A DNA stretch of 64,000 nucleotides from Candidatus Beckwithbacteria bacterium GW2011_GWC1_49_16 (GTDB lineage: Bacteria > Patescibacteriota > Microgenomatia > UBA1400 > CG1-02-47-37). Position numbers and translations under genes: made by a program. This document shows positions 13,443 to 54,988 of this stretch, piece after piece (position 1 is the first letter of the stretch; every line of letters begins with the position of its first letter). The stretch lies in the NCBI GenBank assembly GCA_001029675.1, contig CP011210.1:64193-128192 (forward strand), written 5' to 3'. The notes below the pieces were generated by a model. It saw only the letters and a list, made by a program, of their open reading frames with translations. It was not told the DNA's origin and did not search any database.

Positions 13443-15134
13443 GTGAGGCGATTTTTTGTGGGCGTAGAATTTGATATCAGGGCCAGTTTAGCGGCAGCGA
13501 CAAAGGCATTTGACCAGTCCGTCGCCAGCGGTTGGCGGGCGATTAAACAAGAGGGGAAAAACCTATTCACAAGGGGTAAAGAAATAAGCGATCCTTGGGG
13601 GGCATATTTTAAAACGCCACTAGAAATAAGGCTCGATTCTCAAACTGGTAAAAGGAAGATATTTTGGCAAGGCTATGATCGTTCGGTCAGCGCCTCGATG
13701 CGACGCCATGCCGCGTGGCTAAGGCTTAATGGGGCAACTAAAGAAGAGATAGGCAAGGCAAGGGCGGAGTTATCGGCATGGCAGGGGTTGGAGACAGTTA
13801 TTCTAGGCCTAGAAGAAGGTGAAGCAGTACAGTTTTTGGCATTGCGAAGTTTAGATTCTAACGATGGTGTGGCCTTACAGCAGGTTAGCTTGAGAAATGG
13901 ACGCCTGGCGTTGGAATCACAGTTGTTGCCGTTTGATCGACCCGAGCAAATAGACAAATTTATTGAGAGCGTTGAATTTATGGGAGAAAGTTTAGAAATT
14001 AACCAGGCCGAAACCGATGTGGACCTGTTGGTATTTTGGGCGGTTAAGGGTGAAGCGATTGATTTTAAGCAGGATGTGCCTAAATTGATTGGGGCGGCGA
14101 CGAGAGCCGAGCAGCTGCCAACGATTCAGTCGAGACAGGCAGTGGTTGGTGATGTGCCTGAAGTATTAGCGGCGAACCCATTAGAAGACAGGGTGGTATC
14201 GGCTAAGCCGACGAGCTTTTGGTTTGAAATGGCGGCAGGGGTGAAAATTGCTTCAAGGTCCGACCCTGAAGCGGCGGAAGCGGCGGAGTCGGAAACGATA
14301 GTTTTGGATCGTCCAGAAGTCACGCCGGTTGTGTTTGCGGCAACCTCTGGGAAGATACAAGAAAGGGAAGTGATGGAGGGAGTTAGACCTGTGGTGGCAG
14401 TAAAACCTGTGTCGGCGGTAAGCCCTGCGTCCCGGCCCGCGAAAGCTTCTGGAAAAACAGGTGGGCGAGTAGATGTTGAGGCTGAGGCCGGCGTGATGCC
14501 TACGGGATCAGATCCTGTAGGACAACAGCCACCTTCAAGGATAAACCCTGAAGGAATCGAATCAACTCGGCCAGTTGAGCCCGACCAGCCGAAAGTTAAC
14601 CTCGATGCGCCACAGCAAGATTTTGTCCGTGACTTTGTCGATCTGTCTGCGCCTAAACATTCTATGGAAGTTTCTGAAAAAGTGGATGTGGTCAAGGAGC
14701 AGGACCATACGGAAGCTTCCGGAAAAACAGAAGTAGGGCAACTGCGACCTTCAAGGATAAACCCTGAAGTTGTGAAAGTGGAGCCGCCGGTGTGGCAAGT
14801 GGAGCTAGAAGGTTTAAGCTGGCAGGAGATACCGGAATGGAAGTTTGACAACCTGCTGGTGGAAGGGGATTGGGGGTTTTCGGTAGCGGCAGGCTTAACC
14901 AGCCTGAATGAGCAAATTATGACGGCTAAGAGGGCTTTTGAGGGCAGGCAGTGGCCGATTTTTGATTTTTATTGTCAGGTTTCAAACGTTGTGGCAGCAA
15001 CACTTTTTTTGATTGCGAACACATTTTGCCTAGATACACAGGGCTTGATTTTAGCGGAGGAGAAAGTGTTTGAAAAAAGCGGGGGAGTGGTTAGCGGTTT
15101 GACACCCAATTTCTTGAGGAAAAACGAAAGTTGA
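13443..15134 (+). CDS. hypothetical protein with internal repeats
   Basis: 563 aa. The repeated block ASGKT...PSRINPE occurs twice. Pro/Val/Glu-rich central region. No recognisable catalytic motif. Start codon uncertain. Confidence 0.4.
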   Translation: MRRFFVGVEFDIRASLAAATKAFDQSVASGWRAIKQEGKNLFTRGKEISDPWGAYFKTPLEIRLDSQTGKRKIFWQGYDRSVSASMRRHAAWLRLNGATKEEIGKARAELSAWQGLETVILGLEEGEAVQFLALRSLDSNDGVALQQVSLRNGRLALESQLLPFDRPEQIDKFIESVEFMGESLEINQAETDVDLLVFWAVKGEAIDFKQDVPKLIGAATRAEQLPTIQSRQAVVGDVPEVLAANPLEDRVVSAKPTSFWFEMAAGVKIASRSDPEAAEAAESETIVLDRPEVTPVVFAATSGKIQEREVMEGVRPVVAVKPVSAVSPASRPAKASGKTGGRVDVEAEAGVMPTGSDPVGQQPPSRINPEGIESTRPVEPDQPKVNLDAPQQDFVRDFVDLSAPKHSMEVSEKVDVVKEQDHTEASGKTEVGQLRPSRINPEVVKVEPPVWQVELEGLSWQEIPEWKFDNLLVEGDWGFSVAAGLTSLNEQIMTAKRAFEGRQWPIFDFYCQVSNVVAATLFLIANTFCLDTQGLILAEEKVFEKSGGVVSGLTPNFLRKNES

Positions 15135-15675: not shown

Positions 15676-17982
15676 ATGACCAAAATGATGTCGTCACAAC
15701 TGACCTTTTATCCACATGAGAGTGGGTTGGTGGATAAAGGGATTAATGGAGAAAGAAAGGATGAGGGCGGCAACGGCGAGGTAAAGCCCGCCTTTGAAGG
15801 CGAGGCGAGGCAGGTGATGGCCAGGTCGCAAGCTGGCTGGGACGTTGCCCGCATGAAAAAAAGAATGAAATTGACGGAAAGGCGCCTGGCTAATGGTTTG
15901 GGTAAGGCGGTGGCCAAAAGGACGATTTTGCGGCCAGGGGAGACCTGGGTGGATGTAGCCGAGCGGGTCGCCCGCGGCAACACCAGCTTGATCGGTAAAG
16001 GCCGACAGCAGCATCGAAAAGAGGAATACGAGCTTCTAAAAAAACACATTACCAACGCCACTCTACTGATGAGCGGCAGGCATCTACAGCACGGAGACGA
16101 GACGCAAGTGAAACGTAACATGGAGGTGTTTACTAACTGTTCGACGGCTTCGGCGTCTTTTCTTTTGTTCTACCTGCTTCTGAATGGTTCTGGGGTGGGC
16201 AGAGCTTACGACGACGACATGTGCGTGGTGGATTGGGACTATATGCCGATAGTCCGCTGCGTTTTAGACGAGAAACACCCGGATTTTGTTTGGGGTGAAG
16301 ACGAGTCGGTCAAAGAGGCCAGGCATAAATACGGCAAGGTGTATTGGTTTGAGGTGCCCGACACCCGTGAGGGCTGGGCCCAGGCGACAGAAAAGATGGA
16401 GGTAATGGCTTATGAGAAAAAATACAAAGACGATGTTTTGGTGATCGATTTTTCCAAAGTGAGGCACAAGGGGACCAAGATCCACGGCATGCAGGATCGC
16501 CCGGCTTCGGGTCCTAAACCTTTAATGAAAGCGATTGCCAAAGTGGCGACGGTGAAGAATGCGCGATTGCCGAAGTGGAAACAGGCGATGTACGTGGACC
16601 ATTACTTGGCCGAGTGTGTTTTGGTCGGAGGCGCAAGGCGCGCGGCCAGAATCGCTACCAAATTTTGGACAGACCCGGACATTTTAGACTTTATTGATAT
16701 TAAGCGGGGCGGGTTTTTGTGGAGCGCCAACAACTCGGTCGCGGTGGACGAGAAGTTTTGGCAGCAAAAGACCAAGCACGCCAGAAAGGTATTGACGGCG
16801 ATTGCTCATGCCAGCTACCACCACGATACGGGCGAGCCTGGGTTTGTCAATCAACACCGCTTGGTGCAAAACGACGACAAGTTTGCCGGCTACTTTAACG
16901 GTAAGTACGCGGAGAGCAAAAAGTACCAGGTGGGTAAAATCACCCGAAAGATGTTGGCGCGCTTGGCCAAAAACGCCTCGAGTAAAGTGTATATGCAGAT
17001 TCCCAACCCTTGCGGCGAGATTACGCTTAATATGTTGGGGGCTTATTGCGTTATTGGCGACGTGGTGCCGTTTCACGCCCCAGACGTAGATACGGCCGAG
17101 GAGGCATTCAGGGTAATGACTCGGGCTCTGATTCGAGTTAACACCATGGACTCGCTTTATCGTAAAGAGGTAGAAAGAACCAACCGGATCGGGGTAAGCC
17201 TGACCGGGATTCACGAGTTTGGTTGGAATGCTTTTGGCTACGCTTTTCGCGATCTAATCGATGAGGAGAAATCGCGTGATTTTTGGATGACGCTAGCCCG
17301 GTTCAAGCGGGCGGTGGTGGACGAAGCCGAGCGCTACAGCCGGGTTTTGGGAGCAACGGTGCCGCACACCAACACCACGATCAAACCGGCGGGGACGACG
17401 TCAAAACTTTTTGGGCTTTCTGAAGGAGCACACTTGCCGGCGATGAGGGAGTATATTCGTTGGGTGCAGTTTAGAGAAGATGACCCCTTGGTGGCAAGCT
17501 ACCAGAAGCAGGGTTATCCGACGCGCCAGCTTAAAAGCTACAACGGGACGACGGTAGTGGGTTTTCCGACCCAGCCGACTATCTGCCGGCTGGGGATGAA
17601 CGGTAAGTTGGTAACGGCCGGGGAGGCGACTCCCGAAGAACAATACCGCTGGTTGATGTTACTGGAGAAATACTGGATTGTGGGCGTGGACGAGGATGGT
17701 AACCCTCTCCCCGATACCGGCAACCAGGTTAGCTACACCCTCAAGTACAAGAAAGACAAGGTTAGCTTCAAAAAATACAAGGCGCTTTTGAAGAAATACC
17801 AATCAAGGGTGAAGTGCTGTAGCCTGATGCCCCAACAGGACTCGACCGCCTATGAGTATCAACCGGAGGAGCCGGTAACGGCAGGGCAGTTTATGAAGGC
17901 CTTAAACGAGATTACCGGAGAGCTGGACGAGGATATTGATCTTGAAGCTTTAAAGTGTGAGTCGGGGGCGTGCCCGATATAG
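15676..17982 (+). CDS. nrdJ: ribonucleoside-triphosphate/diphosphate reductase, class II (adenosylcobalamin-dependent)
   Basis: 768 aa monomeric RNR. Active-site loop NPCGEITL (thiyl-radical Cys, Glu). No adjacent small-subunit gene. Directly downstream of nrdR. Confidence 0.8.
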   Translation: MTKMMSSQLTFYPHESGLVDKGINGERKDEGGNGEVKPAFEGEARQVMARSQAGWDVARMKKRMKLTERRLANGLGKAVAKRTILRPGETWVDVAERVARGNTSLIGKGRQQHRKEEYELLKKHITNATLLMSGRHLQHGDETQVKRNMEVFTNCSTASASFLLFYLLLNGSGVGRAYDDDMCVVDWDYMPIVRCVLDEKHPDFVWGEDESVKEARHKYGKVYWFEVPDTREGWAQATEKMEVMAYEKKYKDDVLVIDFSKVRHKGTKIHGMQDRPASGPKPLMKAIAKVATVKNARLPKWKQAMYVDHYLAECVLVGGARRAARIATKFWTDPDILDFIDIKRGGFLWSANNSVAVDEKFWQQKTKHARKVLTAIAHASYHHDTGEPGFVNQHRLVQNDDKFAGYFNGKYAESKKYQVGKITRKMLARLAKNASSKVYMQIPNPCGEITLNMLGAYCVIGDVVPFHAPDVDTAEEAFRVMTRALIRVNTMDSLYRKEVERTNRIGVSLTGIHEFGWNAFGYAFRDLIDEEKSRDFWMTLARFKRAVVDEAERYSRVLGATVPHTNTTIKPAGTTSKLFGLSEGAHLPAMREYIRWVQFREDDPLVASYQKQGYPTRQLKSYNGTTVVGFPTQPTICRLGMNGKLVTAGEATPEEQYRWLMLLEKYWIVGVDEDGNPLPDTGNQVSYTLKYKKDKVSFKKYKALLKKYQSRVKCCSLMPQQDSTAYEYQPEEPVTAGQFMKALNEITGELDEDIDLEALKCESGACPI

Positions 17983-20807: not shown

Positions 20808-21245
20808 ATGGCAGACCTGCCCGATGACCAGAATCAACCCGCTCCGCCGGTATCCCCGACGACCCCGGTAAGCGGAGGGACGGCGGCCAAGGAGAAGGAT
20901 AAACCCGCCTTCGCCGAAGGCTCCGGCGAGGCAAGACAGGAAGTCACCCCGATTACCGAGTATACCCGGCAAGTGGATTTGGAACCGGAAGTGGAGAGTT
21001 GGATGGAGAAGCTCGAGAAGGAGGAGGGTAAACTGACTCAGCCGGTGACCGACGATAAAGGCCAAGTGGTACTCGACGACAGCCAAAAGCAGGATAAAAA
21101 ATTTAAGGTGGTGTTGCCTTTGACACGCGACGAGGTAGAAAAGGGTTTGCATCACAAGGTGGTGGATGGGGTGAGGTGGTTGGCGGAGTGGTGCGTGAGA
21201 CTCGTTAAGATGTTTGGCAGTAAAGTTGCCTACAGGAAAAAATAA
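20808..21245 (+). CDS. hypothetical protein (Pro/Glu-rich N-terminus)
   Basis: 145 aa ORF immediately upstream of, and abutting, the coupling-ATPase gene. Confidence 0.35.
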   Translation: MADLPDDQNQPAPPVSPTTPVSGGTAAKEKDKPAFAEGSGEARQEVTPITEYTRQVDLEPEVESWMEKLEKEEGKLTQPVTDDKGQVVLDDSQKQDKKFKVVLPLTRDEVEKGLHHKVVDGVRWLAEWCVRLVKMFGSKVAYRKK

Positions 21246-23575
21246 TGGATCCAATAACTGTCTTTGTTGACCAGGCAAAATACCTGACCTTTTTGGCCTT
21301 TTTGATGGGGGCGAGCCTTGTGGGATTGGTGGGGCTAGTTTACCTTCTGGTTAATTTGATTAAGTTTAAAGACAGGGAGAAGCGGTCGTTGGAGTATGTG
21401 CTTTTGGAAGTAGCCGTGCCAAGAGACAACGAGGTCAAGATCGACGCGGCCGAGCAGATGTTTGCGGCGCTGACCAGCATCAAGAAAGGCGGGGGTTTCT
21501 TGAAGATTTTCAAACCCCAGCAGCACATTTCTTTTGAAATCGTGGGCAGAAAGGAAGACATTAGGTTTTATGTGTCGGCCCCGGACAAATTGAGGGATTT
21601 GGTGGAAAAGCAGATTAATGGGGCTTATCCCGGAGCCGACGTCAAAGAGGTGGAGGAATATAACATTTACACCGATCACGGTAAGGTGGCGTTTGCGGCT
21701 TTGAGACTTACCGGCACCAGCTACATGCCGATTCAGGTTTACAAGGACCTGCCGGTGGATTCTTTAAGTTCACTGACGGCGGCGATGGCCAAAATGGGGG
21801 ATAACGAGGGGGCGGCGGTACAGATAGTCGTGGCGCCGGCAGGAAATTCTTGGCGGAAAGCGGGCAAGGCTTATATCTCAAAGACCAAAAAGACCGAGGC
21901 CGACCCGGAGACGGCCAAGTACAACATTGATCCAAAAACCTACGAAGAGATAGATAACAAGTGTAGTAAGCCCGGTTTTGAGGTGGCGGTGAGAATGGTA
22001 GTTTCTTCCACAACCCGCGAGTCGGCCGAGGCGCATTTAGCTAACATGGTGGGGGCGTTTTCTCAGCTTAGTTCGGATCATAATGGTTTTGCCAAGGCCA
22101 AGGTGAGGCTCAAAAAGATTTTTATGGTCGATTTTATCTACCGCTACCAGCCGGTTTTTGGGTCTAAGAACATTTTGTCGGCCGAGGAGTTGGCGACGGT
22201 GTTCCACTTTCCCAATAAAAGCGTCGAAACGCCGCACATTTATTGGCTAAGAGCCAAGAGGGCGCCGGTGCCGGCTCAAATCCCCAAGGAAGGGCTTTTT
22301 TTGGGTAAAAGCAGTTATCGGGGGACGTCGCGGTCGGTTTTTATCGGCGAGGACGACCGGTTGCGGCACATTTATATTATCGGCAAGACCGGTGTGGGCA
22401 AGTCGGAGTTGATGACCGACATGATACTTCAAGACATTAAGGAGGGCAAAGGGGTGTGTTTTATTGACCCTCATGACACGGTGGAAAAGATTATGGAGAT
22501 GATTCCGCCCGAGCGGGCAGAGGACGTGATTTACTTTAACCCGTCGGATACCGAGCGGCCGATGGGGCTTAATATGCTTGAGGCGTCCACAGAAGAAGAG
22601 AAACACTTTGTGGTGACTTCGATCGTGGGTTTGATGTATAAGCTTTACGATCCGCACAAGACCGGAATTATCGGTCCCCGGTTTGAGCATGCCATCAGAA
22701 ACGCCATGCTGACGGTGATGAGTGATCCGGGAAACACTTTTATCGAAGTGGTGCGGGTTCTGACTGACAGTAAATACGTCCAAGAGTTACTCCCGCGAGT
22801 CAAAGACCCCATCGTCAGGCGCTACTGGACTGATCAGATTGCCCAAACGTCTGACTTTCACAAATCGGAGGTGTTGGACTATATTGTTTCAAAATTCGGC
22901 CGGTTTGTGACCAACAAGATGATGCGTAACATCATCGGCCAGTCGGAGAGCGCTTTTAACTTCAGGAAAGTGATGGACGAGGGCAAGATACTTTTAATTA
23001 ACCTGGCTAAGGGCAGGATCGGGGAGGAAAACAGTAATTTTTTAGGGTTGATTCTGGTACCGAAAATCTTGATTGCGGCCATGAGCCGGCAAGACACGCC
23101 GGAGGAGGAAAGGAAGCCGTTTTATCTCTATGTTGATGAGTTTCAGAATTTTGCCACGCCAGACTTTGCCCAGATATTGTCGGAAGCAAGAAAATTTAGG
23201 TTAGCCCTAACCGTGGCCAACCAGTTTATCGGCCAGGTAGAGGAGGATGTCAAAAACGCCATTTTCGGCAACGTCGGCAGCCTAATCGCCTTCAGGGTGG
23301 GAGTGTCGGATGCTAACTACCTCCAGCATGAGTTTCAACCGACTTTCACCGAAACGGACCTAATTAACATTGAGCGGTTTAACGTCTACGTCAAAACCAT
23401 CGTCAACAACGAGCCGGTGCCGCCCTTTTCCATGGACTTGACTAAAGACATGGGTCAGGCAAAGGCGCAGAGGAACGACAAGGTGGCGGAGATGGTCAAG
23501 CAATTGAGCCGGCTTAAATACGCCAGGGACATGGGTGTGGTCGAGGCGGAGATTTCCCAGCGGGCCAAACTTTAG
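21245..23575 (+). CDS. VirD4/TraG/TrwB-like type IV coupling protein family ATPase (FtsK/HerA superfamily), membrane-anchored
   Basis: 776 aa. N-terminal TM helices. Walker A IIGKTGVGKSE. Walker B-like LYVDEFQNF. Conserved C-terminal arginine block. Confidence 0.55.
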   Translation: MDPITVFVDQAKYLTFLAFLMGASLVGLVGLVYLLVNLIKFKDREKRSLEYVLLEVAVPRDNEVKIDAAEQMFAALTSIKKGGGFLKIFKPQQHISFEIVGRKEDIRFYVSAPDKLRDLVEKQINGAYPGADVKEVEEYNIYTDHGKVAFAALRLTGTSYMPIQVYKDLPVDSLSSLTAAMAKMGDNEGAAVQIVVAPAGNSWRKAGKAYISKTKKTEADPETAKYNIDPKTYEEIDNKCSKPGFEVAVRMVVSSTTRESAEAHLANMVGAFSQLSSDHNGFAKAKVRLKKIFMVDFIYRYQPVFGSKNILSAEELATVFHFPNKSVETPHIYWLRAKRAPVPAQIPKEGLFLGKSSYRGTSRSVFIGEDDRLRHIYIIGKTGVGKSELMTDMILQDIKEGKGVCFIDPHDTVEKIMEMIPPERAEDVIYFNPSDTERPMGLNMLEASTEEEKHFVVTSIVGLMYKLYDPHKTGIIGPRFEHAIRNAMLTVMSDPGNTFIEVVRVLTDSKYVQELLPRVKDPIVRRYWTDQIAQTSDFHKSEVLDYIVSKFGRFVTNKMMRNIIGQSESAFNFRKVMDEGKILLINLAKGRIGEENSNFLGLILVPKILIAAMSRQDTPEEERKPFYLYVDEFQNFATPDFAQILSEARKFRLALTVANQFIGQVEEDVKNAIFGNVGSLIAFRVGVSDANYLQHEFQPTFTETDLINIERFNVYVKTIVNNEPVPPFSMDLTKDMGQAKAQRNDKVAEMVKQLSRLKYARDMGVVEAEISQRAKL

Positions 23576-23924: not shown

Positions 23925-24608
23925 TTGATGGTTCGAATGGCTAAGGTTTTGATTGAAAAAAGGATTGAGGCGATAAAATTAAGAAAGTTAGGAAAAAGCT
24001 ACTCCCAGATTAAAAACAAGTTGGGTGTGAGTAAAAGCACTTTGAGCTATTGGTTGAGAAGATACCCTCTATCGAAAGAAAGGATTAGAGAGCTTCAGAA
24101 AAGTGAGAGGGCAATTGAAAAATACAGAGAAACAATGCGAAGAAAAAGAGAGGAGCGGTTAAGAGGCGTTTACAAGAAAATGAAGAAGAAACTATTGCCG
24201 CTTACAAAGAAACAGTTGTTGATAGCAGGTCTGTTTTTGTATTGGGGAGAAGGGTTAAAAGCAAGCCAGTCTCAGGTTAATTTCAGCAACAGCGATCCGG
24301 AAATGGCGAAGTTTTATTTATATTGGCTAACTAGAGCGTTGGGGATTAGCAGAAGAAAAATTAAGGTAAGATTACATCTTTACAGAGATATGAATATTAA
24401 CGCGGAGACAAAATATTGGAGCGAGCTATTAAGAATACCGAGAAGTCAATTTACTAAACCCTATATTAAAAACACAACCCTTAAAAGTATTACTTATAAA
24501 GGGTTTGGGCACGGCACGTGTGATATTAGATACGGAAACGTTGGTTTAAAAGAAGAAATAATAATGGGGATAAAGGCGATTTCGGATAAACACTCAAGAC
24601 TTTCGTGA
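23925..24608 (+). CDS. HTH-domain protein with LAGLIDADG-like homing-endonuclease-type core (paralog 1)
   Basis: 227 aa. N-terminal resolvase-type HTH (GKSYSQIKNKLGVSKSTLSYWLR). Central LLIAGLFLYWGEGLK...NSDPEMAKFYLYWLTRALGI matches LAGLIDADG helix/beta/beta/helix spacing. AT-rich relative to neighbours. Paralogous to 27685-28362. Confidence 0.5.
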   Translation: MMVRMAKVLIEKRIEAIKLRKLGKSYSQIKNKLGVSKSTLSYWLRRYPLSKERIRELQKSERAIEKYRETMRRKREERLRGVYKKMKKKLLPLTKKQLLIAGLFLYWGEGLKASQSQVNFSNSDPEMAKFYLYWLTRALGISRRKIKVRLHLYRDMNINAETKYWSELLRIPRSQFTKPYIKNTTLKSITYKGFGHGTCDIRYGNVGLKEEIIMGIKAISDKHSRLS

Positions 24609-24620
24609 TAAAATACGCTT

Positions 24621-24692
24621 AGGCGGATAGCTCAATGGTAGAGCGGTGCTCTTATACAGCATTGGTTGTGGGTTCGACTCCCGCTCCGCCTA
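24621..24692 (+). tRNA. tRNA-Ile, anticodon TAT (UAU)
   Basis: Folded by hand: acceptor AGGCGGA/TCCGCCT, D-arm GCTC-AATGGTA-GAGC, anticodon stem GTGCT/AGCAT with loop CTTATAC, T-arm GTGGG-TTCGACT-CCCGC, discriminator A. No encoded CCA. Confidence 0.7.
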
Positions 24693-24700
24693 CAAGATGG

Positions 24701-24730
24701 TCGGTGGTTCGAGTCCAGCCCGGCCTACCG
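24701..24730 (+). other. degenerate tRNA 3'-end fragment (T-arm plus acceptor-like), possible att-site remnant
   Basis: GGTGGTTCGAGTCCAGCCCGGCCTACC resembles a T-arm and 3' acceptor strand (20/27 matches to the 3' end of the adjacent tRNA). Lacks D and anticodon arms. Confidence 0.4.
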
Positions 24731-24772
24731 CGTCAAACGCGGCCAGTCCCTGCCCGAAAGAGCAGGTTTTTT

Positions 24773-25240
24773 ATGACTTTTGAAAAGCCACGCCATAGAT
24801 TGCTACCAAAAAGGGATATCAAAGAGGCCTTGAACGAGATGCAGGCTCTTGCTTTTCGCGGAATTTGCGGCGAGATACTTGCAGGGAGGGAGATTCAAAA
24901 ATTTGATATGTATTTGTTCGGCTCCATTTCTAGAGGAACATTTGATGATGACTCCGATATAGATGTTTTGTTAGTGCTTGAAGGCGACCAAAAAACTAGT
25001 AGTGGGGTGCAGGAGATAAGCCCAAGACTTCAATTTTGGTTGGTAGTTGAATTAACAAGAGTTCGTCCCAAAATTGAAGAGGAATTGGGTAGGTCAGTTG
25101 AGATCGCTTTTGCCACTTATGATGACCTGGAGATTGCTAGAGAATCTCTTCGTGACGGTATGTGGAATCATTTAACGCGAATCTATAGAGATCTTAAGCC
25201 TTTGACTGACAAGGATTCGAGAGAGTTTATAGCTCTTTGA
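24773..25240 (+). CDS. minimal nucleotidyltransferase (Pol-beta superfamily, MNT/KNTase-like)
   Basis: LFGSISRGTFDDDSDIDVLLV = GSxxRG...DxD nucleotidyltransferase motif. Start taken at the ATG at 24773. The longer listed ORF start overlaps the tRNA and is spurious. Confidence 0.65.
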   Translation: MTFEKPRHRLLPKRDIKEALNEMQALAFRGICGEILAGREIQKFDMYLFGSISRGTFDDDSDIDVLLVLEGDQKTSSGVQEISPRLQFWLVVELTRVRPKIEEELGRSVEIAFATYDDLEIARESLRDGMWNHLTRIYRDLKPLTDKDSREFIAL

Positions 25241-27684: not shown

Positions 27685-28362
27685 ATGGCTAAATCTGCCC
27701 AACGGTTGGAAGCGAGACGGCTACGACGGCAAGGCTACAGCATTAACGAGATCGCCTCAAAGGTGACAATATCTAAACGAACTGTAAGCAGGTGGTGTAG
27801 AGATATTGTGTTGAATAGGCGACAGAAGAAAATTTTGTGGGCGAGGGCCAAATCTAAATACGCGATTAATTTTAGAAAATACCTTGAAAGAAAAAGTTTA
27901 AGAACCAAAAACAAAATTAAAACCCTTAGGGTAAAAGGGATAAATAAGATTGGGAGTTTGTCCGAAAGGGAACTATTTGTCGTTGGTGCCTCTCTGTATT
28001 GGGCGGAAGGATTTAAAAAAGACACGAGAATCGGTTTTGCTAACTCTGATCTGGATATGATTAAGTTGTTTATTAGGTGGTTAACGAAGTGCCTAAAGAT
28101 TACCAAAGATAATTTGACTTTTTGTGTAACCGTCAATGCTTCGTATAGAAGAAAAATTGCTGAAATTGAGCGGTATTGGGTAAAGAGTTTAGGCGTTAGT
28201 AGAAAGCAATTCACCAGGCCGTTTTTCCAAGAAGTTAAATGGAGGAAGAAGTATGAGAAACCGGAGGAATATCATGGCGTGTTAAGGGTAAGGGTAGTTA
28301 AGAGCCTGGATTTGTTGAGAGAGGTTAATGGTTATATTGAAGGGTTGAGGCGAAGTGTATAG
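27685..28362 (+). CDS. HTH-domain protein with LAGLIDADG-like homing-endonuclease-type core (paralog 2)
   Basis: 225 aa. N-terminal HTH (GYSINEIASKVTISKRTVSRWCR). Core LFVVGASLYWAEGFKKD...NSDLDMIKLFIRWLTKCLKI aligns with paralog 1 (LYWxEG...NSD...WLT). AT-rich. Immediately followed by a tRNA. Confidence 0.5.
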   Translation: MAKSAQRLEARRLRRQGYSINEIASKVTISKRTVSRWCRDIVLNRRQKKILWARAKSKYAINFRKYLERKSLRTKNKIKTLRVKGINKIGSLSERELFVVGASLYWAEGFKKDTRIGFANSDLDMIKLFIRWLTKCLKITKDNLTFCVTVNASYRRKIAEIERYWVKSLGVSRKQFTRPFFQEVKWRKKYEKPEEYHGVLRVRVVKSLDLLREVNGYIEGLRRSV

Positions 28363-48750: not shown

Positions 48751-51700
48751 TTGGCCTGTTTATTGGCATTATTTAATCTTTTTAACTAAGTCATTTAGAT
48801 TAATTGTTTCTTTAAGGCTGCTTAGTTTTTCTAAGGCTTCAGCCTCTATTTGTCTAATTCTTTCCCTGGTTAACCCAAACGCATAACCAACTTCTTGTAG
48901 AGTGTAGAAGACGCCGTCTTTTAAACCATACCTCATTCTAAGAATCTCAGCCTGCCTTGGAGAAATGTTGTTTTGGGAAAGGAGAGTATCTACTTGATGT
49001 CTAATTACTCTTTGGAGTGCTTCTCTTTCGGTGTCCACATTGGGGTCTTTAGTTGTGTCTAGCAGAGTTCTTTCGTCATCTCCAGGGGCTGATGCCTCGA
49101 GTGAAATAGGATACACTCTTTGTAGCAAGGCCTGAATTCTTTCAACGGGAATGTTTGTTTTCTCCGAGATAAGCTCTTCAGAGACCTGTTTTTGTTCTTT
49201 CTCGATTTCTCCGATAGCTCTTGTAATTTGAGTAAAAAGCTTGTTGTCGTATGTTGAAAGTCCCCTGTCTTGAGCCAAAAGGGCCCTCATTTCATTTTCG
49301 ATCCAGTAGGTAGCGTAAGTTGAAAGTTTTACCCCTTTTCTCCAGTCATATTTGTTAATTGCTACAAGTAAGCCTATATTTCCTGTCTGATAAAGGTCAA
49401 AAGTTGATGGCTTAGCTCCTCTTTTTTTAAACCTACTGGCTAAAAAGAAAATCCAACGTTGCATAGATTTAATTAGAGCATCTTTGGCTTCTTGTCCACG
49501 CAGAACAAATTGTTCTAGGTTTTGACTATCTGGATGTTGAGGGTTGTTCTCGATTGTTTCTTTGGCTAGCTCGCCACGCTCGATCTCTTTAGCAAGGGCT
49601 ATTTGTGTTTGTAGATCGTACGTTTGGTAAAGATTTACCCTCCGGCCTATTTCTGTGGGGAGGTCAATGGTGTCATAGTCTTCTTCTTCGGCAACCGTAA
49701 TGCCCGATCTTACCCTGGCAAGAATTTCCGCCAGCACTTGATGTTCCTGGGTAGTTGTTTCGTCTTCAACAGGGAAGGCAGAGGACTTTCGGAGAGAAGT
49801 TAGATATTCTTCGTCAAAAATGTACTCAAAATCATCTGGGAAGTTAAGCAAAAGCAACTCTCTAACGTCGAGAGGTGCCTTAGAGTAAAGATAAGATTTT
49901 AAGCTTGAGATTACACTGCTTGTTAGGGTCTCTGGGAGTTCTTGTAAACCATCTTCTAAAAAGAGTTGCAAGTGTCTGGAAAAAGTATGGACTAAGGTGT
50001 AGTATTTTCCTAAATACGGCTTTCTTTTTTCATCTGTTTTTTGTTCAAGTTTGATGTTTTCCTCGTCAAAAAAGAATAAAAAATTCCAAAAGGTTTCGTT
50101 TTTTGCCTTAAACATTTCTAGATCTTGACGGAGTTCTTCCCAAAAGTCTTTTGTTTCTAGTGTCTGAATCCATTGTTCTGGAGAAACTCGCGGCCTAATA
50201 AAAGATACTTTTTTCTCCAGCTCTTGCTTAGCCATTCGTATTGCTTGAATTAATTCTGGTTCGTAAGGAAGGGTAGGAGTGAAGTTGCGGATAAAATGTC
50301 CAGCGCTTTCGGTGTGCCTTTCTAGCGCATATAGGAGGTTGAGATAGTATCCTGGAGTAGATGGATTAATCTTGCCGCCGTTGTTTTCATTTCTTGAAAA
50401 ACCCCTCATAAAGTTAGTGAAATAGGTGTTCTCTGGTATGGTTTTAAGGTCTTGATATAGTTGCACCCAAAAAGCCTCTGTATGGAGTTCTTCATAGTAG
50501 TCTCGCCAATTTTTTTTAATAGGAGTTTCTATAAGTTTCTCTATTAAATTAAGCTGAATTTTTGCTACTAAATCCATGACTTCTTGTTTTTGTGGTTGAT
50601 ACTCTGTGAGATATTTATATGGATATCTAATGCCAGATTTCCTGAGAGCCAAAACCAAGTTATAGTATTTACCGTTAGTGTAATTATCTCTTTCTGCCCA
50701 GTTTGGGTTATCGGGATCGTAGAGGCTAAAAAACTCTCTTTGGGTATAGGCTTTTTTTGGTAGCTGGTCGAGATCTTCTTGAATTTCCAGCCATAAATCA
50801 TGGGTTTCCAGTTGGGCTAAATAGTGTTCTTTTGGCAGGCAAGTTGGAGGAAGTAAATCTTCTGGTTGTGAAAAATCAACCGCTAACACTGGTCTTTCAA
50901 CTTGCGGTTTATCCAGAGTTGGAAGCAGATAAAAGACAGCCTTACCGTCTTGGTGTTTTATTATCCTGCCCGATTCTGATAGATGTTTTAACACCGGGGC
51001 AGTTTTTTTTCCGTATCGTTCCTTTAAATCTTTTGGTCTTGTGGGACCATACTCAATTAAGTGGTCAATAATTATATCTGCGTTTTCTTCTTTGGTTATT
51101 TTTTCGTTGTGTCTTCTGTAGTTTTGTATGGCTTTTTCGGTTATTGAGGGGTCATTCTGAATTTTTTCTAGGGTTTCATTCATGGTTGTCAATTGTTGAG
51201 TGTGTCCAGAAACGGCCGCTAGTATAGGCCTAATAATTGTTTCTACAAATTCTGTTCCCTTCGGGGTTATATGGGTTATTGATTGTTGAACACCGCCAGT
51301 CCACTTTTTTGTTTCAAGGTAACCAGATTCAGCTAATTCTGAAAAAATAGTGTAAACATCCGAGGCATCTTGTCTGCCGAGAGCCTTTAGAACGCTTGGG
51401 ATATTTCCTTCTTCATTTACTTCAAAGTATTTAATAACATTTTTTCTTAGTCGGTTAAGTCTTGGGGAATGGGTTGCAAGATTTTTAGGCCCTACTCGCT
51501 TATATATAAGCCAACCTTTTTGCTCCGTGTCTACAGCCTCGTGATTTATTAATCCTAGGTCGTTTAGGGATTTAAGATTGCCCCTGATAGAGGAGAGATC
51601 TGAGTTTAATGTTCGGCATAACTCGATTTCAAAAGAACTTTTTTGATTAAGGGTTAAAAGTATAGCGCTTCTGGTGATATGAGCTCTGTTGCCACTTGAA

Positions 51701-52238
51701 GTTATTGGTTGACCGAAGATTTTAGACGCAGGAATGTCTTGACTGGCAGAATACTCCAACAACAATGCGGCTATTGGTTTGGCGTAGTTTTCTGCTTCTA
51801 AAGTAAGCTGGTATCCTTTGTTTGTTTTTTGAGCTAAGCCTGTAGGGAGCAGAGAATTAATCAAATATGACATATATATAGAGTTACTTTTTGGATACCA
51901 TGTGGAATAGCCTATACAGTCTCGGGTGCGTTTTCTTAGAGAAGAGACCGAAATAGGTTCAGGAGCGAAACCATGAACAACTAGTGCTTGTTTGGGTTCT
52001 GCTGTGCCGAGGGCGAAGATAACTCTGTCAAATCTTCTTAGGTGTTCTGGCCCAATTTTCGAACCTTCAAGGTTGTTGAGCAATGATTCTAAGTTAGATT
52101 GTTGCCACGTTGTTTGGCCGATTTCGCTTTGACCACGATTTTCCACTAGCATAGTTATCTGGGCGGATTTGAAAGATTATACCACTTGAGGAAAGTTAAA
52201 TATGCCAAGACTGCCGGTCCTATTTATTATTCTGCTTT
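48751..52238. mobile_element. ~3.5 kb single-gene insertion bounded by 43-bp direct repeats, AT-rich relative to flanks
   Basis: Direct repeats at 48708-48750 and 52239-52281 (41/43 identical, both differences synonymous in each reading frame). The insert holds only the 1127-aa sigma-fusion gene. Composition is visibly AT-richer than flanking housekeeping genes. Confidence 0.7.
48769..52152 (-). CDS. giant sigma-70-family protein (1127 aa): C-terminal RpoD-like sigma regions 1.2-4.2 behind a ~800-aa N-terminal extension
   Basis: C-terminus: DLYQTGNIGLLVAINKYD...KLSTYATYWI (region 2). TLQEVGYAFGLTRERIRQIEAEALEKL (region 4.2 HTH). N-terminal part has several winged-helix-like segments (e.g. 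ITPKGTEFVE) and three tandem ~60-aa repeats (D/E-x-W-x-E...DL...P...GKYY-x-LV). Confidence 0.75.
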   Translation of the reverse strand: MLVENRGQSEIGQTTWQQSNLESLLNNLEGSKIGPEHLRRFDRVIFALGTAEPKQALVVHGFAPEPISVSSLRKRTRDCIGYSTWYPKSNSIYMSYLINSLLPTGLAQKTNKGYQLTLEAENYAKPIAALLLEYSASQDIPASKIFGQPITSSGNRAHITRSAILLTLNQKSSFEIELCRTLNSDLSSIRGNLKSLNDLGLINHEAVDTEQKGWLIYKRVGPKNLATHSPRLNRLRKNVIKYFEVNEEGNIPSVLKALGRQDASDVYTIFSELAESGYLETKKWTGGVQQSITHITPKGTEFVETIIRPILAAVSGHTQQLTTMNETLEKIQNDPSITEKAIQNYRRHNEKITKEENADIIIDHLIEYGPTRPKDLKERYGKKTAPVLKHLSESGRIIKHQDGKAVFYLLPTLDKPQVERPVLAVDFSQPEDLLPPTCLPKEHYLAQLETHDLWLEIQEDLDQLPKKAYTQREFFSLYDPDNPNWAERDNYTNGKYYNLVLALRKSGIRYPYKYLTEYQPQKQEVMDLVAKIQLNLIEKLIETPIKKNWRDYYEELHTEAFWVQLYQDLKTIPENTYFTNFMRGFSRNENNGGKINPSTPGYYLNLLYALERHTESAGHFIRNFTPTLPYEPELIQAIRMAKQELEKKVSFIRPRVSPEQWIQTLETKDFWEELRQDLEMFKAKNETFWNFLFFFDEENIKLEQKTDEKRKPYLGKYYTLVHTFSRHLQLFLEDGLQELPETLTSSVISSLKSYLYSKAPLDVRELLLLNFPDDFEYIFDEEYLTSLRKSSAFPVEDETTTQEHQVLAEILARVRSGITVAEEEDYDTIDLPTEIGRRVNLYQTYDLQTQIALAKEIERGELAKETIENNPQHPDSQNLEQFVLRGQEAKDALIKSMQRWIFFLASRFKKRGAKPSTFDLYQTGNIGLLVAINKYDWRKGVKLSTYATYWIENEMRALLAQDRGLSTYDNKLFTQITRAIGEIEKEQKQVSEELISEKTNIPVERIQALLQRVYPISLEASAPGDDERTLLDTTKDPNVDTEREALQRVIRHQVDTLLSQNNISPRQAEILRMRYGLKDGVFYTLQEVGYAFGLTRERIRQIEAEALEKLSSLKETINLNDLVKKIK

Positions 52239-53122
52239 GGTCCACGAGATTCCCAAAGTGATGGCGGAAGTTTTAGGTTAGGCAGGGCGGCGGCCAAAAC
52301 GATCAAGGCCCCGCCCAAGAAAGTGGTGGCAGAGAGAATTTCGCCGAAGAATAAAAAGCCAAAGAGGATGCCGAAGATAATTTCAGCCATGCCGATAAGG
52401 CTGCCGATAGAGGCTTCTAAATATTTGAAGCCTTCAATCACTGAAAAGTTGGCGATCAAAAGCGCAGCGGCGTAGGCGGCGGCGGCTAGCCAAGCGGAGT
52501 GGGCGGAGATAGGGGGAAGAGAGTCTTTAACCAAGTAGGCGATCAGGCCATTGGCGACGAGCATAACGGTGAGATAGCCGGCCATGATTTGGAATTCGTG
52601 ATACTGGCCTGACAATTTTTTAGGCAAGACTGCTGAAATTGCCCCCATGAGGCCGGCGATGATGGTTAAGGTAGCCGGCCAGATTTGAGCCGGAGTCAAG
52701 GAAAGGCGGTAGATTACTCCTAGGCCGGCAAGACCGATGACCAGGCTTGTCAGTTTGGTTCTGGTCAGGGTTTCGTTGAAGACGAGTTTGCCGATAAGGT
52801 AGCCGCCGATGACCAGAGCGGCGTAGAATAAAAGGGTGGCGGTGCCAACCCCAAGGTGTTGGAAGCCGTAGTAATAAGGGGCTTGATTTAGGCCGATTGA
52901 GGCAATAACCAAAAACCAAGGCCAGTCTTTTTTAGGCATGGGTTTGAAGAGTTTTTTCCATTTACCGACCAGGACTACAAAGACCAATAAGATTAAGCCC
53001 CTGGTCCAGGCTTGGCTAAATTCGCCAAAGTCGTGGCCCATGAGGTGCGACCAGACGCCGTAGGTGGCAAAAAAGACAGCCGAGTTTAAAATCCAGGCAG
53101 TACCTTTTGTTTTTGGGTTCAT
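52220..53122 (-). CDS. EamA/DMT-family transporter
   Basis: 300 aa. 10 predicted TM helices in two EamA-like halves. C-terminal codons lie inside direct-repeat copy 2. Confidence 0.7.
   Translation of the reverse strand: MNPKTKGTAWILNSAVFFATYGVWSHLMGHDFGEFSQAWTRGLILLVFVVLVGKWKKLFKPMPKKDWPWFLVIASIGLNQAPYYYGFQHLGVGTATLLFYAALVIGGYLIGKLVFNETLTRTKLTSLVIGLAGLGVIYRLSLTPAQIWPATLTIIAGLMGAISAVLPKKLSGQYHEFQIMAGYLTVMLVANGLIAYLVKDSLPPISAHSAWLAAAAYAAALLIANFSVIEGFKYLEASIGSLIGMAEIIFGILFGFLFFGEILSATTFLGGALIVLAAALPNLKLPPSLWESRGPKQNNK
52239..52281. repeat. 43-bp direct repeat, copy 2 (right flank of insertion)
   Basis: GGTCCACGAGATTCCCAAAGTGATGGCGGAAGTTTTAGGTTAG. On the minus strand it encodes the C-terminal LKLPPSLWESRGPKQ of the EamA transporter. 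Confidence 0.9.
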
Positions 53123-53163: not shown

Positions 53164-53985
53164 ATGTCCGAACAAACAGACAATTTGGTTTCACTTTTGA
53201 CGCCGTATGGCCTAAGCGCTGATGAAGCCAGAGTTTATCTTGATTTGTGGGCCGGCGGCAGCAACTCAGCCTTGGGTATAAGCGGTAATGTTCACTTGGC
53301 CAGAACCAAAGTGTACCGGATTTTGGACAAGCTTAATAAAATGGGCTTGGTGGTAGTAAGGCTCCACTCGCGTGGTCAGAGGTTTGAGGCCAGCCACCCC
53401 AAAAGGATAGGGGTCCTGGTTGAAGAGAAGGAAAAACAAGCGGAGGCGTTGAAGGCGAGTTTGACGATGGTGGTGGGTGAGTTAGACAAGATAGGCAGAG
53501 AGAGAAGGGGAGTTTCTAAGGTGCTTTATTATCAGGGGCCGGAAGGTTTAAAGCAGGTAACCTACAACTCGCTTAAGGCTCGCGGCGAACTTTTGACCAT
53601 GGAGATTGAAACCATGAACGCTTTTTTTGACAAAGACTATGCCGAGAAGATGCGCTTGAAGTTTGTTGAGCGGCAAATTACCTCCAGGACTTTGACTAAC
53701 GTGACCAGGTTAGCGCCGTGGACTGAAGTGGCGGGGGAAATGGTAGAAAAATATTGGCAGATTCGTCATATTCCGGCGAGTCAAATGAAAATAAAGTTTG
53801 AGATTTTGATTTATAACGACGTTTACGTCATGTACCGCTACCAGGGCAGGGAAGTGTTCTGCGTGGAGATTTATAACCAGGAGTTAGCCGATATGCAGCG
53901 GCAGATTTTTGAGTATATGTGGGCCAAAGCCGGGAAGTTTAAGGTATTAAACCGGCGGGGCGAGGCGGTGCTTGACAAACCATGA
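53164..53985 (+). CDS. TrmB-family transcriptional regulator
   Basis: N-terminal winged HTH LSADEARVYLDLW...ISGNVHLARTKVYRILDKLNKMGLV (TrmB signature). C-terminal effector-binding domain. Confidence 0.7.
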   Translation: MSEQTDNLVSLLTPYGLSADEARVYLDLWAGGSNSALGISGNVHLARTKVYRILDKLNKMGLVVVRLHSRGQRFEASHPKRIGVLVEEKEKQAEALKASLTMVVGELDKIGRERRGVSKVLYYQGPEGLKQVTYNSLKARGELLTMEIETMNAFFDKDYAEKMRLKFVERQITSRTLTNVTRLAPWTEVAGEMVEKYWQIRHIPASQMKIKFEILIYNDVYVMYRYQGREVFCVEIYNQELADMQRQIFEYMWAKAGKFKVLNRRGEAVLDKP

Positions 53986-54988
53986 AGTGTTACTTTATAC
54001 TTTATGGTATATGCGGAATTGGTTGGCGATTTTGGCGAAAAAGAAAGAGAGGCTGGATCGCATGAGGTCCTTGCCCCAAGCCCAGGAAAAAAACCTGGCT
54101 GATTGGTTGCGGGTGGAGCTGACTTATACTTCTAACGCGATTGAAGGCAACACTTTATCCAGGCAGGAAACGGCACTGGTGGTGGAAAAAGGCTTGACGG
54201 TTGAGGGTAAAACCTTGAGAGAACATCAGGAAGCAATAAACCACGCCGCGGCTTGGGAGCTGACCAAAAATTTGGCAAGGGAGGGCAAGAAAATTACCAC
54301 TGGGGCGATTTTAGAGATTCACCGATTGATTTTGAATCAGCTTGATGAGCCAAGTGCCGGCAGGTTTCGCCGCGGCCCGGTGAGAATTGCCGGATCGAGA
54401 GTGGTTTTGCCTAATGCGGTCAAAGTACCGAAACTCACGGATAAACTGGTTAACTGGTTGACTACCACCAAAGACCAGCCGGTAAAAGTCGCCGCCGAGG
54501 CCCATTACCGTTTAGTGACTATTCATCCATTTGTGGACGGCAATGGCCGGACCGCCAGGCTAGTGATGAATCTGGTTTTGCTAAAAGCCGGCTATCCGGC
54601 GGCCATAATTAGAAAGGAAGAGCGGTTAAAGTACCTTAACTCCCTGGAAAAAGCCCAGCTGGGTGGAAGCGGTGATGATTATTACCAGTTGATTTACGCC
54701 GCGGTTAACCGGTCGCTTGATCTTTATCTTGAGGTGGCCGGGGCTAAAGCTAGAAAGACATCCACAAAGAAACAACGGTTAAAAATTGGCCAGCTAGCCA
54801 GTTCAAGCGGGGAAAGTATATCTACTATCAGATTTTGGACCAAAGCGGGTTTGTTGCCCGTGGCCGGTCGTACCCGGGGCGGCTATCAGCTTTATAGCCG
54901 GGATGCAATCAAGCGAATTAAACTGATCCGCAAACTACAGCAGGAAAAGCGCCTGACGATTAAAGAGATTAAGAAGGAAATTAGTTGA
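53972..54988 (+). CDS. Fic-family protein fused to a C-terminal MerR-type HTH domain
   Basis: Fic motif HPFVDGNGRTARL (HPFx[D/E]GNGR). C-terminal IGQLASSSGESISTIRFWTKAGLL...YQLYSRDAIKRIKLIRKLQ resembles a MerR-family DNA-binding domain. An alternative start lies at 54011. Confidence 0.7.
   Translation: MTNHEVLLYTLWYMRNWLAILAKKKERLDRMRSLPQAQEKNLADWLRVELTYTSNAIEGNTLSRQETALVVEKGLTVEGKTLREHQEAINHAAAWELTKNLAREGKKITTGAILEIHRLILNQLDEPSAGRFRRGPVRIAGSRVVLPNAVKVPKLTDKLVNWLTTTKDQPVKVAAEAHYRLVTIHPFVDGNGRTARLVMNLVLLKAGYPAAIIRKEERLKYLNSLEKAQLGGSGDDYYQLIYAAVNRSLDLYLEVAGAKARKTSTKKQRLKIGQLASSSGESISTIRFWTKAGLLPVAGRTRGGYQLYSRDAIKRIKLIRKLQQEKRLTIKEIKKEIS

Follow-up and report, generated by a model that had tools for sequence, protein, structure and literature searches.

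The sigma-fusion gene and the parts of its product

The DNA analyzed here (the window, meaning the whole stretch) comprises 64,000 nucleotides (nt) of Candidatus Beckwithbacteria bacterium GW2011_GWC1_49_16 (contig CP011210.1, positions 64,193 to 128,192), an uncultivated Microgenomates member of the candidate phyla radiation (CPR). On its minus strand, at 48769-52152, lies what we call the sigma-fusion gene, one unbroken ATG-to-stop open reading frame (ORF) encoding 1,127 amino acids, in which a sigma-70 domain follows about 845 amino acids of winged helices, helical repeats, and acidic linker. An earlier note, made from the sequence alone, had drawn attention to this ORF without stating its strand; the frame is single and intact, and the peptides quoted in that note lie where it placed them. 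One side of the gene is occupied by a convergent row of genes encoding phosphoenolpyruvate carboxykinase, enolase, phosphoglycerate mutase, and NAD(P)HX dehydratase. On the other side lies a gene for an EamA transporter and, beyond it, genes for a TrmB-like regulator and a Fic-MerR protein. The gene and its parts are as follows.

48769-52152, minus strand: complete coding sequence, 1,127 amino acids plus stop (four winged helices, three repeats, acidic linker, sigma-70 regions 1.2 to 4)
52176-52184, minus strand: putative extended −10 element TGGTATAAT, a consensus match read from the sequence, 23 nt upstream of the ATG
52051-52152, minus strand: N-terminal leader, residues 1-34, with family-conserved W16, S19, L24, and L28 (alignment)
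51733-52050, minus strand: winged helix 1 (WH1) plus long connecting helix, residues 35-140, isoelectric point (pI) 9.1
51478-51732, minus strand: winged helix 2 (WH2), residues 141-225, pI 9.7, conserved KGW motif in the wing
51103-51477, minus strand: winged helix 3 (WH3) plus three connecting helices, residues 226-350, conserved NRLRxN and GGVQQS motifs
50917-51102, minus strand: winged helix 4 (WH4), residues 351-412, pI 9.3
50512-50832, minus strand: repeat unit 1, six-helix, residues 441-547 (hhalign probability 97%, E 7e-11; predicted local distance difference test [pLDDT] score, 87)
50188-50511, minus strand: repeat unit 2, residues 548-655 (hhalign, model)
49783-50187, minus strand: repeat unit 3 plus helical cap, residues 656-790, net charge −10 (hhalign, model, charge)
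49618-49782, minus strand: acidic, poorly conserved linker, residues 791-845, net charge −8 (charge; 20% identity to homologue P0002)
49258-49617, minus strand: sigma regions 1.2 and 2, residues 846-965 (Pfam Sigma70_r2, sigma alignments)
49003-49257, minus strand: sigma region 3, residues 966-1050, a weak match without the RTIRIPVH motif (Pfam Sigma70_r3, below threshold)
48772-49002, minus strand: sigma region 4, residues 1051-1127, with canonical region 4.2, LTRERIRQIEAEALEKL (Pfam Sigma70_r4, alignment to solved SigA)

Three more independent assemblies (ENA ERZ909576, a groundwater metagenome; NCBI GCA_001776075.1; and JGI 3300002502) carry the 3,384-nt gene with 0 nucleotide differences and with its neighbors unchanged, and their gene callers give the 1,127-amino-acid product. 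A 100% identical public protein (P0001, “RNA polymerase sigma factor,” from Candidatus Beckwithbacteria bacterium GW2011_GWB1_47_15) is annotated as 1,034 amino acids long. Since residues 1-93 are conserved in the homologue alignment (W16, S19, D42, R43, and others), the 1,034-amino-acid model starts too late and the 1,127-amino-acid model is correct; family conservation of the leader residues listed above supports its ATG as the true start. A frameshift or a chimeric assembly could in principle have fused two separate genes, one for a regulator upstream and one for a normal sigma factor, and one short JGI contig (L013) does carry two deletions, one of them frameshifting. The identity of the ORF across independent assemblies and its conserved start exclude a split gene or a chimera, and we rejected this explanation, whose probability we consider negligible; the fusion also recurs in at least 15 divergent homologues, and composition is even across all parts of the gene.

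The contig L013 (Ga0209728_1008798), from another metagenome, matches 49273-52533 of the window with zero mismatches over the 2.8 kb that cover the gene. Its first deletion (81 bp, in-frame) eliminates the −10 box together with the ATG and 22 initial codons; its second (7 bp) shifts the frame near codon 152. Either a subpopulation carries a decaying allele or the assembly is in error; if the deletions are real, the gene is dispensable.

The structure predicted for the N-terminal part contains four winged helices, confidently packed into a compact block (pLDDT, 94; predicted template modeling [pTM] score, 0.90), with low pLDDT confined to residues 1-9. The units have the winged helix-turn-helix fold, three helices and a beta-hairpin wing, of the MarR/PadR type. 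Thus, the winged-helix-like content described in the earlier note is present, though as four winged helices and not as “several short segments.” Pfam matches in the sigma-fusion protein itself stayed below threshold (B-block_TFIIIC, 18.2 bits against 22; PadR, 13.6 against 27); matches above threshold occurred in homologues (HTH_5, 31.3 bits in P0005; MarR, 43.1 bits in P0035), and WH2 is the unit that matches HTH_5, MarR, and TFIIE_alpha profiles there. With pI values of 9.1 to 9.7 for WH1, WH2, and WH4, the array is a putative DNA-binding module. MarR/ArsR/PadR regulators are homodimers of ~100 to 150 amino acids, whereas here four units stand in one chain as a compact array.

For residues 431-845, the predicted structure (pLDDT, 87) has three six-helix units, then a helical cap and a low-confidence tail; pLDDT falls below 50 at the end of the linker (residues ~819-845, model residues 389-415). 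The units begin near residues 441, 548, and 656, a period of ~108 amino acids. Profile-profile comparison of the units with each other (hhalign, three-sequence alignments) gave probabilities of 96 to 97% and E values of 3e-9 to 7e-11, where a plain BLASTP self-comparison of residues 1-850 had shown no internal repeat. The three tandem repeats noticed earlier are therefore real, but their period is not 60 amino acids; each 60-amino-acid stretch is the N-terminal, conserved half of a unit. Neither a Pfam family nor a structural neighbor among solved proteins was found for the ~108-amino-acid repeat. The tract formed by repeat 3, the cap, and the linker (residues 656-845) has a net charge of −18 and directly precedes region 1.2; it is unrelated to region 1.1 of other sigma factors, yet occupies the equivalent position.

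Sigma regions and window promoters

In Pfam searches with hidden Markov models (HMMs), Sigma70_r2 (PF04542; 43.7 bits against a cut-off of 24; residues 893-961) and Sigma70_r4 (PF04545; 48.2 against 24.1; residues 1064-1110) exceeded their cut-offs. Sigma70_r3 (PF04539; residues 975-1044) scored 20.7 bits, under its cut-off of 25.3, which the homologues P0005, P0012, and P0013 exceed; region 1.2 was detected in three homologues. Sigma70_r1_1 (PF03979) had no match in the 1,127-amino-acid protein, in agreement with the earlier statement that region 1.1 is missing. The NCBIfam model RpoD_Cterm (TIGR02393) aligned end to end with residues 889-1122 at 145.7 bits, against an equivalog cut-off of 354. 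Full-length RpoD, SigA, and RpoS models all remained far under their cut-offs, and profiles for SigB, cyanobacterial SigA, RpoS, and MzaA scored about the same as RpoD_Cterm without extending beyond the sigma part. Among solved structures, the nearest relatives are sigma factors of group 1/2 (cyanobacterial SigA, Mycobacterium SigB, and Escherichia coli RpoD; E values of 1e-35 to 1e-30), with 35 to 40% identity of the sigma domain to the solved SigA and SigB chains. As a query on its own, the sigma domain retrieved only ordinary primary sigma factors (34 to 41% identity; the named ones from Chloroflexi/Anaerolineae) and neither a close relative of normal size nor a second Beckwithbacteria sigma factor. 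We concluded that the C terminus is a sigma-70 domain, as had been proposed, in a protein more than twice the normal size for the family.

The alignments to solved and canonical sigma factors separate regions that are kept from regions that are lost. The core-binding region 2.2 (DLYQTGNIGLL) and the −35-reading region 4.2 (LTRERIRQIEAEALEKL) are near consensus, and the TRERIRQIE stretch of the latter aligns to solved SigA. Regions 2.3, 2.4, and 3.0 read LSTYATYWIENEMRALLAQDRGL---STY where aligned to E. coli, with regions 2.3 and 2.4 diverged (YATYWIENEM). Relative to E. coli (residues are numbered on a reference peptide that we take to be correct and that aligns consistently with the five canonical sigma factors retrieved), the substitutions are Y425V, W433Y, R436E, and Q437N, with T440 substituted or deleted depending on the alignment. 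The RTIRIPVH motif, which holds the TG-reading H455 and E458, is absent. Of the E. coli residues Y425, Y430, W433, W434, Q437, T440, H455, and E458, only Y430 and W434 are kept, so that the residues reading position −12 and the TG extension are lost. Together with the RpoD_Cterm score, this loss contradicts the description of the C terminus as “full RpoD-like.”

Promoters of the window are of a kind that depends on these residues. In its 6.3 kb of intergenic DNA, the sequence TGnTAnAAT occurs 11 times, compared with 0.8 ± 0.9 times in shuffled sequence, an enrichment of ~14-fold; its density in coding DNA is 0.10 per kb. The sites lie 10 to 25 nt upstream of start codons or tRNAs, for example those of tRNA-Met, ftsH, and a penicillin-binding protein gene. 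This suggests that very short leaders and TG-dependent promoters without a −35 element are the norm in this CPR genome. Example sites are at the following positions.

28368, 33744, 26498, 59172, 7896, 52184: TGnTAnAAT

One of them is the perfect TGGTATAAT (52176-52184) in front of the sigma-fusion gene itself, and the gene is therefore probably transcribed by another holoenzyme. We infer that the sigma-fusion protein is an accessory factor and not the housekeeping sigma, because the promoters of the window need residues that it has lost, because its sigma domain evolves faster than its N-terminal module, because sigma regions 2 and 3 are missing from sibling proteins, and because the family is rare and this gene compositionally foreign here. 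The difference in rate is judged from identities to the Gottesmanbacteria homologue P0002, which are 42% for the repeats, 36% for the winged helices, and 31% for the sigma part, an ordering inverted for a sigma factor.

These data bear directly on the alternative that these CPR lineages use the protein as their primary sigma factor, region 1.1 having given way to an N-terminal extension specific to the lineage. Its organization is of the group 1/2 type with region 1.2, no second sigma gene was found in the 64 kb of the window or in the 10 kb past either end, the gene adjoins recA in two Gottesmanbacteria genomes, and it is identical across four assemblies. We nevertheless consider this alternative unlikely. 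The RpoD_Cterm score is 145.7 bits against 354; the −12 and TG readers are gone, yet the genome’s promoters are of the extended −10 type; the sigma part changes faster than the N terminus; the gene has the lowest GC content at third codon positions (GC3) of the window; the family is rare, with some members lacking sigma regions 2 and 3; and L013 carries deletions that remove the start and shift the frame.

Directly upstream of the window start (9492-10001 on L017) is a gene for a 169-amino-acid protein with an RskA_C (anti-sigma-K C-terminal) domain; no cognate extracytoplasmic function (ECF) sigma gene was found in the 10 kb read.

Family, genomic setting, and relatives of the module

A profile of the N-terminal module, scanned against 1.84 billion representative proteins, gave 503 matches. 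We sorted the best 150 by layout with local domain HMMs, as follows.

Class i, four winged helices, three repeats, and sigma: sigma-fusion protein, P0002, P0005, P0012, P0013, and the gene on L003
Class ii, four winged helices, two repeats, and sigma: P0014, P0015, and P0017
Class ii, four winged helices, one repeat, and sigma: P0022 and P0089
Class ii, four winged helices, no repeat, and sigma: P0024, P0025, and P0028
Class iii, four winged helices and three repeats, without sigma regions 2 or 3: P0003, P0006, P0007, P0008, P0010, and P0011
Class iii, only a region-4-like stretch of sigma kept: P0009
Class iv, ~640 amino acids, repeats and a C-terminal GerE-like helix-turn-helix: P0109, P0122, P0146, and P0148
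Class v, ~400 amino acids, stand-alone four-winged-helix proteins: >100 of the 150 best matches

About 25 clusters or relatives share the N-terminal module with zero to three repeats, which makes the family rare among the representatives. The order of parts in the fusion recurs in at least 15 proteins, each from another 50%-identity cluster and together from several samples, at 24 to 38% identity; homologues of 1,114 to 1,127 amino acids have the same order as the sigma-fusion protein. A scan of genome contigs with a three-sequence profile found one locus only (L003), and a metagenome scan with a narrow profile returned only reassemblies of known loci. No curated family matches the N-terminal architecture, and in the searchable literature we found neither a description of four winged helices plus this repeat at the N terminus of a group 1/2 type sigma nor anything relevant on a CPR, Microgenomates, or winged-helix sigma. 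The impression recorded earlier that this architecture belongs to no described family was thus borne out.

Across the family, the sigma domain varies with the number of repeats. Region 2 is near-canonical, including RTIR.P.H, in P0017, P0025, P0026, and P0028, which have zero to two repeats, and is strongly diverged in most three-repeat members, the sigma-fusion protein among them; divergence of regions 2.3, 2.4, and 3.0 grows as the repeats go from zero to three. The class iii genes for P0003, P0006, and P0008 are complete in their contigs. Most members of this class have a common conserved tail of ~80 amino acids, and among the class iii tails compared with sigma region 4, only that of P0009 was significantly similar (E 4e-11). 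The sigma domain might accordingly be read as a decaying relic in a multi-winged-helix transcription factor or DNA-organizing protein that is no longer an initiation factor. Such decay would fit both the trend with repeat number and the six relatives in which sigma regions 2 and 3 are undetectable, along with P0009. In the sigma-fusion protein, however, regions 2.2 and 4.2 are near consensus and the 280-amino-acid domain is untruncated, which suggests that binding of RNA polymerase is still under selection, and we regard the relic explanation as quite improbable.

The ~108-amino-acid repeat also occurs outside the fusion. It is joined to a GerE-type helix-turn-helix in class iv and to a helicase C-terminal domain in P0032 (1,148 amino acids), which argues that it is a mobile module associated with nucleic-acid-binding domains. 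In these class iv proteins, two stretches matching the repeat span most of the length; one of them, P0122 (8001-9947 on L012), is encoded on a bacterial contig.

The sigma-fusion gene has a GC content of 39.4% and a GC3 of 34%, compared with window means of 49% and 57%, and its GC3 is the window minimum (z = −2.5). The low GC3 is uniform over winged helices, repeats, and sigma. Family members have ~39 to 41% GC everywhere, while their flanks have 42 to 45% in other genomes and ~50% here. Because only this gene is compositionally odd, we consider it probable that the whole fused gene was transferred into this Beckwithbacteria lineage as a single gene from a lower-GC relative, a Microgenomates lineage. 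The gene is thus not part of a “horizontally acquired cassette,” as the earlier note had it; its flanks are ordinary housekeeping genes.

The same note had suggested a phage- or element-encoded sigma that redirects host RNA polymerase, and a defense sigma of the MzaA type would be a variant of this. The gene is indeed a compositional outlier, MzaA profiles match it (135.3 bits in NCBIfam, 87.8 bits in PADLOC), and a Fic-MerR gene with PADLOC matches lies 1.8 kb away. The MzaA matches, however, cover the generic sigma part only. The NCBIfam model (NF041931) aligns over positions 463-714 of 726, far below its cut-off of 800 bits, and leaves the MzaA-specific N-terminal ~460 amino acids unmatched; the PADLOC match is limited to residues 876-1123, and no MZA partner gene was found among the five genes scanned with PADLOC. 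We rejected an MzaA-type defense sigma on the grounds of the unmatched N-terminal region and the missing partners. Nor does any other result link the protein to viruses beyond its sigma part: residues 1-845 matched nothing in 50,697 phage records (tblastn), an IMG/VR scan gave no relative, BFVD gave no fold match for the N-terminal 845 amino acids, and matches in PHROGs, as in PADLOC, were confined to the sigma part. A Pfam scan of the ten genes flanking the sigma-fusion gene, together with ten large ORFs from other parts of the window, showed no integrase or transposase; the window’s three tRNA genes are ~20 kb away. The phage, mobile-element, or defense explanation is largely refuted, and we consider it highly improbable.

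Relatives lie in differing housekeeping contexts. In Candidatus Gottesmanbacteria RIFCSPLOWO2_01_FULL_46_9 (L001) and Gottesmanbacteria RBG_13_45_10 (L003), both assigned by their neighbor proteins, the family gene is divergent to the adjoining recA, and RNase Y is nearby; L001 also has HU and the ribosomal protein gene cluster S13-S11-S4-rpoA-L17. Other family members are in unrelated chromosomal contexts, and we saw no conserved partner genes.

Two regulators lie near the sigma-fusion gene. The TrmB-family winged-helix regulator (53164-53985; 273 amino acids), separated from it by the EamA gene, has an ordinary single winged helix and, as far as tested, is unrelated to the four-unit array. 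The Fic protein (53972-54988) has a C-terminal MerR helix-turn-helix and strong PADLOC matches to the candidate defense families PDC-S04 (E 8e-32) and SoFic (E 1e-28); a Fic gene is also near the sigma-fusion homologue on L004.

Beyond the fusion family, stand-alone proteins of ~400 amino acids were the only other relatives of the four-winged-helix array that we found. They share its four-unit layout, with homology over profile positions 40-410 (E 1e-39 to 1e-18), and differ in lacking both repeats and sigma domain. Three of the four examined are archaeal: P0030 is encoded on a contig with aIF2-beta and mevalonate-diphosphate decarboxylase genes, P0031 on a contig with genes for a tRNA-splicing endonuclease, a family B DNA polymerase, and ribosomal protein L32e, and P0037 is labeled Candidatus Pacearchaeota (DPANN). 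The fourth, on L021, was uninformative. From these assignments, the four-winged-helix module seems to be common to DPANN-type archaea and CPR bacteria. The stand-alone family (8001-9239 on L008, 8001-9155 on L010, and P0037) is large and uncharacterized, with weak matches to TFIIE-alpha/TFE-like profiles.

Several other features of the window were observed. The GC skew of the plus strand is +0.12 to +0.33 in every 2-kb bin of 1-64000, and this strand carries 47 of the 56 tabulated larger ORFs, consistent with a single replichore in which strand bias is very strong. The tRNA-Ile at 24621-24693 has the anticodon TAT (UAU), not a common one in bacteria, and overlaps the start of the listed ORF 24635-25240; if that ORF is a gene, its true start is further downstream. 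Two class A penicillin-binding proteins (transglycosylase plus transpeptidase) are encoded 1 kb apart on the minus strand (5716-7881 and 8885-11143), and a B12-dependent ribonucleotide reductase is encoded at 15676-17982. The ORFs at 13443-15134 (563 amino acids) and 21245-23575 (776 amino acids) had no Pfam match at E ≤ 1e-5. Further compositional outliers are the low-GC ORFs at 23925-24608 (GC, 37%), 27685-28362 (GC, 40%), and 4984-5685 (GC3, 35%).

Promoter choice and what the fusion may mean

The sigma-fusion protein is a member of the sigma-70 superfamily that matches neither primary RpoD, nor MzaA, nor phage sigma factors. Like the group 1/2 sigma-70 factors (RpoD/SigA, Mycobacterium SigB, cyanobacterial SigA), it has regions 1.2, 2, 3 (a weak match), and 4 in the same order, with the region 2.2 core-binding and region 4.2 TRERIRQIE motifs conserved. 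Unlike them, it has an 845-amino-acid winged-helix and repeat module in place of region 1.1, as well as the −10 and TG changes described above; it differs from primary RpoD, moreover, in its low RpoD_Cterm score and in a sigma domain that evolves faster than the rest of the protein. Fused regulatory extensions of sigma factors are known from the C-terminal extensions of ECF sigma factors and from MzaA, and a homologue search with the full-length protein gave a fusion of ankyrin repeats with sigma (P0004; 703 amino acids). What these share with the sigma-fusion protein is a sigma-70 domain joined in one polypeptide to a non-sigma module presumed to control it. Here, in contrast, the extension is N-terminal, three times the size of the sigma domain, and made of winged helices and a new repeat; it sits on a group 1/2 type sigma, unlike the ECF extensions, and any similarity in sequence to MzaA is confined to the sigma part.

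We propose, at about even confidence, that the protein is a chromosomal accessory sigma-70-family factor of Microgenomates (CPR) in which promoter choice is made largely by the N-terminal winged-helix array. By ancestry, it would be a group 1/2 type sigma whose region 1.1 was replaced by a module of ~845 amino acids, consisting of four MarR/ArsR-like winged helices, three ~108-amino-acid six-helix repeats, and the acidic linker. It would dock on core RNA polymerase through regions 2.2 and 4, as other sigma factors do, with degenerated readers of the −10 element and the TG extension. Because these readers are degenerated, promoter choice would come largely from the basic winged-helix array on DNA, which would serve as a built-in activator or targeting domain. 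The repeat array may act as a spacer or scaffold, and the acidic tract (repeat 3 plus linker) lies at the position of region 1.1.

A different use of the same module would be self-regulation, a possibility raised in the earlier note as a sigma fused to a regulatory or anti-sigma module. The N-terminal module would then be a fused anti-sigma factor or sensor, a signal would release sigma, and promoters would be read by the sigma domain. The winged helices would bind a ligand or partner, and repeat 3 with the linker would mask regions 2 and 4 in the manner of region 1.1 or of the C-terminal extensions found in some ECF sigma factors. MarR/PadR-type folds, which are commonly ligand-responsive, are present; the four-winged-helix block is compact (pTM, 0.90); and the net charge of −18 at residues 656-845 lies where primary sigma factors have the acidic region 1.1. 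However, no known anti-sigma family matched the N-terminal 845 amino acids. The earlier proposal of a sigma fused to a regulatory module of its own remains viable. The degenerated −10 readers mean that specificity must come from elsewhere, and the module is retained entire in homologues that lack sigma regions 2 and 3, which argues for a role independent of sigma masking. That persistence, together with the existence of the array as an autonomous ~400-amino-acid protein, fits a module that binds DNA or a partner in its own right better than one that only masks. We regard self-regulation as rather unlikely to be the main role of the module, though targeting by the winged helices and self-regulation are not mutually exclusive.

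Several points weigh against targeting of promoters by the winged-helix array in an accessory sigma. Region 4.2, conserved here, is diverged in P0002, so there is no single promoter-recognition scheme across the family. The recognition helix of WH3 is acidic, and winged helices can also mediate protein contacts; binding of core RNA polymerase, like binding of DNA by the winged helices, is putative. Accessory status presupposes a separate canonical rpoD in the genome, and the window with 10 kb past either end held no other sigma gene. No functional analogue was found for the repeat module, and “scaffold” is a guess at its role.

Sigma factors are the textbook case of a compact promoter-recognition subunit with conserved −10 and −35 readers. 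In the sigma-fusion protein, the polymerase-docking surfaces of a group 1/2 type sigma persist without its −10 and TG readers, alongside 845 amino acids of other domains that may bind nucleic acid or serve as scaffold. If the winged-helix array sets promoter choice, this would be a different way of programming bacterial RNA polymerase, conceptually nearer to fused-activator recruitment or to the winged-helix initiation factors of archaea and eukaryotes. The family is a natural remodeling series, with zero to three repeats and a sigma region 2 that goes from canonical through degenerate to absent, and it supplies a confidently modeled, new ~108-amino-acid six-helix repeat. Stand-alone proteins of archaea, at least one of them from DPANN, have this array too, which points to gene exchange between domains. 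We suggest tentatively, as a possibility that is still doubtful, that the family may record the capture of an archaeal (DPANN-type) four-winged-helix module by a sigma factor and, with it, inter-domain exchange of a transcription module between CPR and DPANN, both episymbiotic radiations, a transition from sigma factor to transcription factor, and a repeat that is a new fold family specific to this machinery. If this is true, one polypeptide recruits bacterial RNA polymerase and selects promoters by non-sigma DNA contacts, −10 reading has been progressively lost across the family, and sigma regions 2 and 3 have been discarded in some members. The carriers are CPR bacteria, in which gene regulation is almost wholly unknown.

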